From NCBI GenBank assembly GCA_963727625.1, contig CAVSHR010000004.1:864001-928000 (forward strand): a stretch of DNA of 64,000 nucleotides, written 5' to 3'. The position numbers were made by a program, and so were the translations under genes. This stretch comes from an uncultured delta proteobacterium (GTDB lineage Bacteria > Desulfobacterota > Binatia > UBA9968). A model generated the notes under the pieces. That model was not told the DNA's origin, searched no databases, and was given only the letters and a program-made list of their open reading frames with translations. Of the stretch, positions 54,612-57,062 are shown piece after piece (position 1 is the first letter of the stretch; every line of letters begins with the position of its first letter).

Positions 54612-54642
54612 AACTATATGTCAAATAGAATTGATCTATGGA
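54612..54642 (-). promoter_or_regulatory. LysR-type operator ATAG-N7-CTAT next to a TTGACA -35 box
   Basis: ATAGAATTGATCTAT at 54625-54639; TTGACA on the minus strand at 54619-54624; 21/31 identical to 57032-57062. Confidence 0.75.
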
Positions 54643-54729
54643 CCCGGACAAGTCCGGCTTCGCAACCATCGAATTGCCGATTTCAACGGCAGGAAGGGTC
54701 TGAATCCAGTCCAAAGGCGCAGAACGGTG

Positions 54730-55200
54730 CTAAGAATTTTCCCTGAGAAACGCCAAAACTTCTTGGGGATGGGCCTCGGCTTTCTTAACGGCAGGCCAAT
54801 GTTTGACGACTTCGCCCTTCGGTCCGATCACAACGGTGGAACGGATCGTGCCTTCGACTTCTTTGCCGTACATCATCTTCCGTCCCCACGCGCCGTATTT
54901 CTTCATCATTTCGGTTTTCGGGTCCGACAACAAAACGAAGGGCAGCTTGAAACTTTCAACGAACTTGTTATGCGACGCGATGCTGTCCTTGCTCACACCG
55001 AGCACGACAACACCGGACTTTTTCAAGTTCGGTGTCAGATCGCGGAACCCACAGGCTTCTTTGGCGCAGCCCGGGGTGTTGTCCTTGGGATAGAAATACA
55101 ACACCAGAGTCCTGCCCTTGTAATCGTCCAGCGAGTGTTTTTTCCCGTCGTTGCCATCGAGGCTGAACGCCGGCGCTTTTTTGCCTTCAAGATTTTTCAT
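54730..55200 (-). CDS. bcp: BCP/PrxQ peroxiredoxin (Cys form)
   Basis: [29 protein letters not shown]. Confidence 0.93.
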   Translation of the reverse strand: MKNLEGKKAPAFSLDGNDGKKHSLDDYKGRTLVLYFYPKDNTPGCAKEACGFRDLTPNLKKSGVVVLGVSKDSIASHNKFVESFKLPFVLLSDPKTEMMKKYGAWGRKMMYGKEVEGTIRSTVVIGPKGEVVKHWPAVKKAEAHPQEVLAFLRENS

Positions 55201-55337
55201 CGGTATTTAATTCCTCCTCGATGGCTGCCGTAATTTTTCTTAGATAACGGAAATACCCGTCATGCCAACAGAGCCGGCTCGGCGTTGCCTGTCTAAAAGA
55301 GGCTCATCTGAGCCGATCCATGGGACATTCCCGGTGT

Positions 55338-55619
55338 TCATTCGGTCACGTTGACGCCACGCCAAAACGCGACGTAGTTCCTGATTCGCTGTGCCGCCTG
55401 CTTGGGCTCGGGGTAGTACCAGGCGGCGTCTTGATTCAACTGGTCGCCGACCTGCACGTGATAGTAGCTGGCCAGTCCCTTCCATGGGCAGGTCGTGTGC
55501 TTGTCGCTGGGACGAAAAAGGTCTCGCTTCACCGAGTTCGGCGGAAAATAGTGATTGCCCTCCACTTGAAGGGTTTGATCAGACTCTGCCAAGACCGCCC
55601 CGTGCCAAATTGCCTTCAT
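55338..55619 (-). CDS. DUF427 protein
   Basis: VEGNHYFP, TCPWKGLASYY and AAWYYPEP motifs. Confidence 0.92.
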   Translation of the reverse strand: MKAIWHGAVLAESDQTLQVEGNHYFPPNSVKRDLFRPSDKHTTCPWKGLASYYHVQVGDQLNQDAAWYYPEPKQAAQRIRNYVAFWRGVNVTE

Positions 55620-55648
55620 TTGATTCTCCTCCCAAGGTCCGACGACTG

Positions 55649-57005
55649 CTATGAGACACAGCGAAACTTTGCAAAGACATAGGGATAATGAGCCTGATAC
55701 CAATTGCGGAAGCTTGGCCGCAACAAATTCGCATCCGTCGCCCAGGATGCGCCTTTGAGGACAAAATGCTTGCCGTCGAAAAAATCCCGCGAATAATCCG
55801 GATAGCTTTCAATATAGGATGAAAAGCCTGGAAAGGGCTCAAACGGCGTGTCGGTCAGCTCCCAGCCATTGCCGACCAGTTCGAGCACTCCCCAGCGGCT
55901 CGCTCCCGCCAGGCGGGAGCCAACGGGTAGCGGCGCCCAGGAAAGAAAATCAAAATTACCATGGCGAGCGCCGGGAGCTGAATTGCCCCATGGATGTTCC
56001 GACTTCCGCCCGTCGGGGCCGTAATAGGCCGCGCGGTGAAATTCTGCCTCGGTCGGCAAGCGCTTGCCCGCCCAGCGCGCATAAGCCCGGGCCTCCGCCA
56101 AGCTCACGTATACCGGCCAGCTAGCCGCCTGTTGCAGTGGAAAGCTGTCGAACATCGCACGATAAAACCATGCGCCGTCGCGCTGAAACCAACACGCGGG
56201 ACAGCGCTTTCCTTCGAGATTTTTCCAGCGCCAATCTTCCCGCCGCCAGTGGCGCGCGTCCTGGTAGCCCCCGGATGCGACAAATTCGAAAAACGTCCCC
56301 GTTGCTAACCGGTAGCGAGTCGATTTTGAATGCCGGCACGTCAACGAACCTCTCGTCGAATTCATTGTCCCAACCGAAAGATATCTCGCCGAGTTTTGCG
56401 CCCAACCTTGCGCGACCGGCGGGAATCGTGATGGCGTGCGAAAACGCCGCGGTCTGAAACGAGTACTGAGGCGCGAACTTGGCCCGTCGCTTCCGTGCCG
56501 GCGGCACTCGCTGAAGCATGTAAGCGAGCGTCTCCTGATGCATGTACTCATGCTCCAGGATCATTTGAAACACCCGCCCGTTCTGCGCCATGGGACTGTT
56601 CGATCGCGAGCCGCCGAGCGCTTCCAATGACTCCAAAATCGCCCCACGCACATGATCGCGGTACTCAAGCGTCTCCGCCAGACTCGGCCAGCTCTCCGGC
56701 ACTTCCGGGTGCCAGTGGCATTCCCCTGTGTCCACGTCCGGATCGATACCGCGGCAGAAAAGATCGTCGAAATAGGGATTGAAGGATTTCCAATGGAGCA
56801 AAGCGCCGCAAACCTGGTTCCAGGAAAACGCCGGCAGATGGCCGATATAGAATATAAACGGATGGCGCCAAACGATCGGCTGGGCCTGGATCTCGTCGGC
56901 CGGAAGCATCGCAAAGATTTTATCGGTGCGCGCCCAGGCGGCAAGAAACAGGCCGCGAAGCTCCTCCATCGTGTCAAGCACATTGCGGATAACCGGTAGT
57001 GCCAT
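55649..57005 (-). pseudogene. EgtB/OvoA-family non-heme iron sulfoxide/selenoxide synthase (DinB-like + FGE domains), one frameshift at about 56294
   Basis: RHPFIFYIGH, EHEYMHQE and FGWDNE in the first frame; RLPTEAE, GNGWE, YPDYS and RPSFRNWY in the second. Removing one base gives a 451-aa ORF. Confidence 0.85.
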
Positions 57006-57031
57006 GGCCCCTCCCTTCGTAAATCGTTTTT

Positions 57032-57062
57032 AACTATTTACTAAATAGCTACAGTCTATGGA
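57032..57062 (-). promoter_or_regulatory. LysR-type operator ATAG-N7-CTAT upstream of the synthase gene
   Basis: ATAGCTACAGTCTAT at 57045-57059, with a second degenerate box (ATAG-N7-CGAT on the minus strand) 22 bp downstream. Confidence 0.75.

Follow-up and report, generated by a model that had tools for sequence, protein, structure and literature searches.

Several described systems provide the background for the locus analyzed here. A selenium-linked subfamily of LysR-type regulators, LysR_Se, has been proposed from gene neighborhood and phylogeny (PMC5322559), and in the portions of that paper available to us the bacterial members stand so far as a comparative-genomics prediction, with adjacency to selA, selB or selD described only for some of them and a conserved proline of the effector domain named as specific to the subfamily. 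The archaeal member HrsM represses genes for cysteine (Cys) isoforms of hydrogenase at adequate selenium (PMC5322559, PMC11097638). Selenophosphate has been suggested as its signal (PMC5322559), and in the accessible text of PMC11097638 the way in which the signal reaches HrsM is stated as unknown. In the literature searched, subscription journals and regulon databases aside and some of the papers available in part, an operator sequence was found neither for HrsM nor for a bacterial LysR_Se. Here we describe two similar intergenic sites in a 64,000-nucleotide stretch (the window) of contig CAVSHR010000004.1, assembly GCA_963727625.1, positions 864,001 to 928,000 of the forward strand, from an uncultured delta proteobacterium (Desulfobacterota; Binatia; UBA9968). 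Judged from their sequence, the two sites are probably operators of the adjacent LysR-type regulator, a protein of the selenium-associated kind (LysR_Se / NF040786); that this LysR is the binder is inferred from its position next to the sites and from the shape of the box.

Operators of comparable form are described for other LysR-type proteins. The consensus given for Escherichia coli OxyR is ATAG-N7-CTAT-N7-ATAG-N7-CTAT in the available part of PMC5720770, and in the oxyR-oxyS region such dyads are reported to be centered at -66, -44 and -35 (PMC5002191, likewise available in part). The classical LysR arrangement, as presented in the same portion of PMC5002191, has a recognition site near -65, an activation site near -35 and a divergent, autoregulated regulator gene.

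A sequence-only reading of the window had singled out two 31-mers, at 54612-54642 and 57032-57062, as matching LysR-type operators. By direct reading both are present letter for letter and are identical at 21 of 31 positions. The description given of them also proved accurate: each contains ATAG-N7-CTAT (54625-54639 and 57045-57059) and a second half-site 22 bp away, giving CTAT-N7-ATAG-N7-CTAT without mismatch at both sites; they share one orientation, each upstream of its own minus-strand gene; and TTGACA lies within site 1 (minus strand, 54624-54619), between half-sites 2 and 3. At site 2 the corresponding letters are TTAGTAA, and a weak fourth element, CGAT, follows at 57026-57023. Site 1 precedes the binding-protein gene of an ATP-binding cassette (ABC) transporter operon (ATG at 54557) and site 2 precedes a synthase gene (ATG at 57005). 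Both sites are intergenic, the nearest edge of the 31-mer being 55 bp (site 1) and 27 bp (site 2) from the ATG, and the first half-site lies 82 nt and 54 nt from it, respectively.

These sites stand well apart from the background of the window. Within its 64,000 bases ATAG-N7-CTAT is found twice, compared with a shuffle mean of 0.10, and two occurrences were reached in 1 of 100 shuffles. The 20-base skeleton common to both sites, AACTAT-N5-AAATAG-N6-TCTATGGA, matches only these two sites when up to three mismatches are allowed and has no match in any of 100 shuffles. Exact copies of CTAT-N7-ATAG-N7-CTAT are likewise confined to 54614-54639 and 57034-57059. When three mismatches are tolerated in this three-half-site pattern it occurs 12 times in the window against 15.08 expected, which is chance level, so that only exact copies count as evidence. 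With a position matrix built from 62 distinct sites of related loci (described below), from whose training the window sites were excluded, sites 1 and 2 scored 45.5 and 35.3 bits, while the best score in each of 200 block-shuffles of the window averaged 4.9 bits with a maximum of 25.1 bits. The sequence-only reading had also proposed a weaker half-match upstream of a selenocysteine (Sec) peroxiredoxin gene, ATGT-N7-CTAT at 58616-58630. Its letters are present, but the best matrix score in that upstream region is -0.3 bits, within the shuffle range and no better than chance, and an operator of this kind there is not supported.

Conservation of the motif upstream of orthologs had been set beforehand as a test. 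The search for LysR relatives returned 976 at E <= 1e-30 among 4190 candidates, and an alignment of 25 was used to scan genome contigs. This LysR-anchored scan gave 80 loci, one per species-level genome, most of them labeled Binatia or "delta proteobacterium", with LysR proteins 51-90% identical. Three loci with less than 100 bp after LysR (L075, L077 and L078) were set aside, leaving 77 usable loci. The motif passed this test, as 63 of the 77 loci carry an exact dyad within 400 bp downstream of LysR. The pooled loci contain 73 exact dyads in 1,256,735 bases, compared with 7.9 expected from composition; 65 of these fall within the 400-bp stretches after LysR and 3 more lie upstream of a transporter operon. 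In 69 of 77 loci the matrix finds a match of at least 23 bits after LysR, and a weaker but recognizable operator is found there in five further loci (L008, L019, L042, L047 and L050). Most of the matches of at least 23 bits after LysR were training sites of the matrix, and therefore transporter sites away from LysR and a motif count free of prior choice carry more weight. Among nine loci in which the transporter operon does not adjoin LysR, seven have a site of at least 23 bits within 300 bp upstream of the binding-protein gene, as does the window. For the unbiased count we tallied all 4-mer-N(0-12)-4-mer pairs in a fixed 200 bp after LysR, independently of the motif noted earlier. CTAT-N7-ATAG and ATAG-N7-CTAT ranked at the top, each being present in 61 of 77 loci compared with 0.10 in shuffles. 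A conserved, oriented three-half-site box thus marks the first gene after the regulator, and it marks the transporter operon whether or not this adjoins LysR. The conserved neighbors gcvT, Nudix, HAD and xanthine-dehydrogenase-like genes have no strong matrix match in the loci.

Read on the strand of the downstream gene, the operator consists of three phased half-sites, ATAG (H1)-N7-CTAT (H2)-N7-ATAG (H3), of which the first two make up a T-N11-A box of the usual LysR kind. Among 85 sites, ATAG is found at H1 in 81 and at H3 in 75 and CTAT at H2 in 73, and the mean frequency of the top base is 0.79 in the core compared with 0.43-0.44 in the diverged flanks. The spacers are not alike in their conservation. 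Between H1 and H2 the letters vary freely (68 distinct 7-mers), whereas the H2-H3 spacer is constrained to 22 distinct 7-mers and depends on the class of the target. All strong sites are oriented toward the downstream gene. In the transporter class (41 sites) the H2-H3 spacer is TTGACAT or TTGACTT and H1 mostly lies 74-87 nt from the ATG; the peroxiredoxin class (11 sites) has the same two spacers with H1 about 59-69 nt from the ATG; and in the synthase class (29 sites) the spacer is TTAGTAT and the distance is mostly 52-57 nt. The H2-H3 slot would correspond to the -35 hexamer (TTGACA) in the transporter and peroxiredoxin classes and to a -10-like element (TAGTAT or TATATA) in the synthase class, a reading that fits the H1-to-ATG distance, which is shorter by ~23 bp, about two helical turns, in the synthase class. 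Four further sites comprise one before an ArsP-type permease gene (L032), two before genes of transglutaminase-like proteins with a Tat signal (L048 and L052) and one second copy, which lies upstream of the transporter site of L036.

An OxyR-like fourth half-site was also considered. CGAT occupies this place at site 2 of the window, but the position is not conserved over the 85 sites, where TGAT (20 sites), GAAT (8 sites) and others are found and CTAT is absent from the eight commonest 4-mers. On the other side of the operator, L056-L079, a subclade with the transporter directly after LysR, share a lone conserved CTATGG ~18 bp upstream of H1 (~10923-10928 in most), between the LysR stop codon and the operator, which may be an extra contact for a tetramer. 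A stray ATAG or CTAT is also seen 15-35 bp upstream of many other sites of the transporter and peroxiredoxin classes.

The presumed binder is listed with the other features in Table 1; all relevant genes of the window lie on the minus strand. It scores 261.7 bits with the NCBIfam model NF040786 ("selenium metabolism-associated LysR", LysR_Sec_metab), above the curated cutoff of 250, while the next best model, YeiE, gives 168.7 bits against a cutoff of 480. The OxyR model scores 89.5 bits (cutoff 329), and the alignment of 25 regulator orthologs contains no invariant Cys, which together rule out that the adjacent LysR is an OxyR. Its closest solved relative is 5y2v (E 5.3e-30), a cyanobacterial "Rubisco operon transcriptional regulator" that we take to be NdhR; YeiE and CmpR come next, and OxyR follows later at about 1e-15. 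Comparison of the DNA-binding domain with solved structures indicates an ordinary winged helix-turn-helix and gives no clue to specificity.

Table 1. Coordinates of the two operator sites and of the genes discussed, with their strands and supporting features.
Feature	Position	Strand	Remarks
Operator site 1 (transporter class)	54614..54639	minus	ATAG (54639-54636)-N7-CTAT (54628-54625)-N7-ATAG (54617-54614)
Operator site 2 (synthase class)	57034..57059	minus	ATAG (57059-57056)-N7-CTAT (57048-57045)-N7-ATAG (57037-57034)
LysR-type regulator, 303 aa (amino acids), presumed binder	57105..58016	minus	Pfam HTH_1 and LysR_substrate
ABC transporter operon behind site 1	51171..54557	minus	PhnC and PhnE models
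Transporter binding protein	53700-54557	minus	TIGR04553 "putative selenate ABC transporter", 340.7 bits, cutoff 250
Transporter ATPase	52866-53696	minus	
Transporter permeases	52052-52969 and 51171-52055	minus	
EgtB/OvoA/SenA-like synthase, first gene behind site 2	55649..57005	minus	DinB_2 and FGE-sulfatase domains
DUF427 gene after synthase	55338..55619	minus	Pfam PF04248, E 6.3e-34
Cys-type peroxiredoxin (BCP/PrxQ-like), last of synthase-side group	54730..55200	minus	Active-site codon TGC
Sec-type peroxiredoxin upstream of LysR	58125..58592	minus	In-frame TGA at 58460-58458; not preceded by operator

Between the Sec-peroxiredoxin and LysR genes lies a strong terminator-like hairpin (58074-58106, minus strand) of 14 pairs, 9 of them G-C, with a T-rich tail, which points to a separate LysR promoter in the ~60 bp that are left. 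A search for an autoregulatory site upstream of LysR found no dyad, and in loci without the Sec-peroxiredoxin only a promoter-like pair, TTGACA...TTTAAT, is present; in such loci (among L030-L053) this pair stands back to back with the gcvT promoter. In the window a promoter-like pair for gcvT, TTGTCA-17-TATATT, is found at 58677-58705 on the plus strand.

The sequence-only reading had tied the transporter and the synthase into one regulon. Conserved sites at both support this connection, and the regulon suggested by the loci is wider than these two targets in that it also takes in a peroxiredoxin, an ArsP-type permease and a transglutaminase-like gene. Of the 85 sites, 41 belong to the putative selenate-type transporter, more than to any other target. 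Apart from the window, 28 loci have the synthase-class form of the site before an EgtB-like ortholog, and the pair of synthase and DUF427 genes is conserved across loci. The intact ortholog of L001 (8453-9808, 451 aa) stays under the cutoffs of the OvoA N-terminal domain (256 of 400), EgtB (223.5 of 360) and SenA (220.3 of 420) models, and the synthase seems to belong to a subfamily of sulfoxide/selenoxide synthases that has not been named. In the window the synthase is read in two frames, and alignment to the intact L001 protein places the break in a short G-run near 56300 (56290-56310). Similarly fragmented synthase matches occur in several loci from long-read assemblies, which makes an assembly error as likely as a pseudogene for the window copy.

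The two peroxiredoxins are paralogs, one upstream and one downstream of the regulator. The upstream one has TGA at the active-site codon in all 30 copies identified by pattern search. Among 31 downstream copies, 25 carry a Cys codon at this place and six carry TGA (L007, L008, L012, L013, L020 and L029). A Cys paralog of the neighboring selenoprotein behind the operator in 25 of 31 copies recalls HrsM as far as that system is described in the parts of the papers at hand. A strict reading of the downstream protein as the Cys back-up of the selenoprotein is weakened by the six TGA forms. The Cys-type gene stands directly behind the operator in 11 other loci. Most loci with the Sec-peroxiredoxin gene carry a separate conserved element, TTGATTGAT...GGTGTGATAGA, 35-60 bp upstream of its start (58626-58660, minus strand, in the window). 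This element differs from the LysR box and looks like the gene's own promoter, with a -35 and an extended -10 element.

Gene order around the regulator is well preserved in the loci. HAD, Nudix and the divergent gcvT gene are followed, often after the Sec-peroxiredoxin, by LysR, and LysR is followed by the synthase group, the transporter operon or the Cys-peroxiredoxin; a xanthine-dehydrogenase-like cluster usually closes the region. The window has two clusters resembling xanthine dehydrogenase or CO dehydrogenase (47339-51089 and 37310-40750), and the former recurs beside the selenium-linked cluster in most loci, where it is 72-94% identical. Other genes behind the operator or within the cluster are the ArsP-type permease (L032, 11019-12071), transglutaminase-like proteins with a Tat signal and a radical-SAM/DUF3641 protein; further coordinates are L048 11047-12141, L052 8895-9992 and 10116-11090, and L001 10901-11995, and in L052 the transglutaminase-like gene is followed by the radical-SAM/DUF3641 gene. 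In several synthase-class loci DUF427 and the peroxiredoxin are separated by a second binding protein, a distant one of the phosphonate type (L003 12691-13494; L007 12646-13485), which scores 66.6 bits with TIGR04553 against the cutoff of 250 and is absent from the window. Six loci (L001, L006, L010, L015, L025 and L028) are titled as Chloroflexota, Verrucomicrobiia, Fimbriimonadales, Limnocylindrales, Acidiferrales and Eisenbacteria and match the Binatia loci in gene order and identity; they are either mislabeled bins or cases of recent transfer. The rest of the window holds unrelated metabolism, including five UbiD-family decarboxylase paralogs at 10056-36271 that are interleaved with cupin and solute-binding proteins and are unrelated to the operators.

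Comparison with the systems introduced above places the operator among ordinary LysR-type boxes. Like the OxyR sites, as given in the portions of the cited papers at hand, it has identical half-site letters, 11-bp phasing, dyads at or over the -35 region and a binder family of the LysR type. Unlike OxyR, for which four ATAG-type elements in four successive major grooves are described, it has three conserved half-sites, its adjacent regulator is no OxyR ortholog and its main target is a putative selenate-type transporter. Since the half-sites and their spacing equal those of the OxyR consensus, the operator is an ordinary LysR-type box and not a new kind of motif. The sequence-only reading had offered it as a candidate binding motif for this type of regulator, and in that role it stands as the first candidate for the family, in letters and spacing that were already those of OxyR. 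The regulator resembles LysR_Se and HrsM in fitting NF040786 and in adjoining a selenoprotein gene. HrsM differs in being archaeal with hydrogenase-operon targets, while the present regulator has no selA, selB or selD neighbor and some of the downstream peroxiredoxins (6 of 31) are Sec forms.

The cyanobacterial NdhR/CcmR operator is ATAG-N8-CTAT, as opposed to the N7 spacer at the window sites and in the loci. The likeness to NdhR/CcmR lies in the cyanobacterial origin of 5y2v, the closest solved structure of the LysR; effectors and targets differ, being concerned with carbon concentration there and with selenium-linked genes here. With the classical arrangement, as far as it is set out in the accessible part of PMC5002191, the locus shares the T-N11-A dyad, extra phased half-sites and a regulator gene beside its target. 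It departs from that arrangement in that the regulator gene lies upstream of the target in the same direction and has no operator at its own promoter, and in that the strongest dyad would abut the -35-like hexamer instead of lying near -65.

The similarity to OxyR sites raises the question of whether the sites are bound instead by another regulator of the LysR type whose gene lies elsewhere, with a true OxyR as the most plausible candidate; they would then belong to a peroxide-stress regulon and the neighboring LysR would be incidental. We regard this as unlikely. The targets do include a peroxiredoxin and an EgtB/OvoA-like enzyme, and in the transporter and peroxiredoxin classes the dyad centers would fall near -43 and -32, close to the -44 and -35 reported for oxyS in the available part of PMC5002191. 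However, the site stays beside LysR in 74 of 77 loci whatever gene follows, be it the synthase, the transporter, the peroxiredoxin, the ArsP permease or the transglutaminase-like gene, and its commonest target is the putative selenate-type transporter. LysR-type regulators usually act on adjacent genes. In addition, the adjacent LysR is itself no OxyR by model score and by the lack of an invariant Cys, and no OxyR gene was found within the 64-kb window.

That the shared sequence reflects only conserved promoter architecture (-35, -10 and UP elements) with no dedicated regulator appears very improbable. Promoter-like letters are part of these sites, with TTGACA inside the transporter and peroxiredoxin classes and the -10-like TAGTAT or TATATA inside the synthase class, and the H2-H3 spacer is conserved for each class. 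Against this, the best-conserved letters are the three ATAG/CTAT half-sites, which are the same in both promoter classes despite the different hexamer; the H1-H2 palindrome with its free spacer is the signature of a dimeric protein site; and the gcvT, LysR and Sec-peroxiredoxin promoters of the same loci are without the motif. Chance resemblance, to which the AT-rich intergenic nature of both stretches and the chance-level count of three-mismatch patterns might have pointed, is refuted by the window counts with exact matches at the two sites only, by matrix scores above the shuffle maximum, by retention of the motif in 63-74 of 77 loci and by its recovery in the unbiased dyad count.

With the adjacent selenium-associated LysR as the binder, a LysR tetramer would occupy the half-sites, and one signal would couple a putative selenium-oxyanion importer, the EgtB/OvoA/SenA-like synthase with DUF427, and the peroxiredoxin. 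As a repressor, the regulator would act when an effector, possibly selenophosphate, reports enough selenium, and the promoters would be released when selenium is short. We lean slightly toward repression over activation because the operators overlap core promoter elements, because the precedents HrsM and NdhR are both repressors, and because the downstream peroxiredoxin is mostly a Cys form while the upstream one is a TGA form in every copy. A more specific and rather tentative proposal is that of a bacterial selenium-status switch, in which one LysR_Se with its operator placed over the -35 (importer, Cys-peroxiredoxin) or the -10 element (synthase) might draw different outputs from one signal, including a swap of Sec- for Cys-peroxiredoxin like that of archaeal HrsM.

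A number of observations weigh against this interpretation. Another LysR-type protein could be the binder, given half-sites and spacing of the OxyR type and targets of an antioxidant type. The loci are phylogenetically related, so that their counts are not independent events, and all were fetched with LysR as bait, which builds adjacency to LysR into the search. No site directly follows LysR in 3 of the 77 usable loci (L018, L023 and L025), and 2 of the 9 non-adjacent transporter operons have no good site within 300 bp (L017, where the binding protein is only 48% identical, and L039). No dyad was seen upstream of the LysR gene itself when the promoters of the window and the loci were read, and a promoter scan of the window called no promoter at either operator site. 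The link to selenium is drawn from family names and from the neighboring Sec-peroxiredoxin. With TGA in frame as its active-site codon, this gene next to LysR on the upstream side indicates a Sec-decoding organism; selA, selB, selD and tRNA-Sec were not found in the 64-kb window, and the gene closeness to selA, selB or selD on which the 2015 definition of LysR_Se was based is thus not seen within it. As to the mode of action, the regulator could equally well activate from these positions in the way of OxyR, and a pure selenium-sparing logic is at odds with the Sec form of the downstream peroxiredoxin in some of its copies.

With the two sites and their counterparts in related loci, the bacterial selenium-associated LysR subfamily gains its first candidate for an operator and for a set of targets, from an uncultured lineage, the novelty of the motif being limited to this family of regulators. 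For the question of how prokaryotes sense their selenium status, a conserved operator together with a list of targets (the ABC importer of the putative selenate type, the EgtB/OvoA/SenA-like synthase and its DUF427 partner, the peroxiredoxin, the ArsP-type permease and the transglutaminase-like protein) turns the LysR_Se prediction into one that can be tested at the bench. The motif also allows the regulon to be traced in uncultured Binatia genomes.

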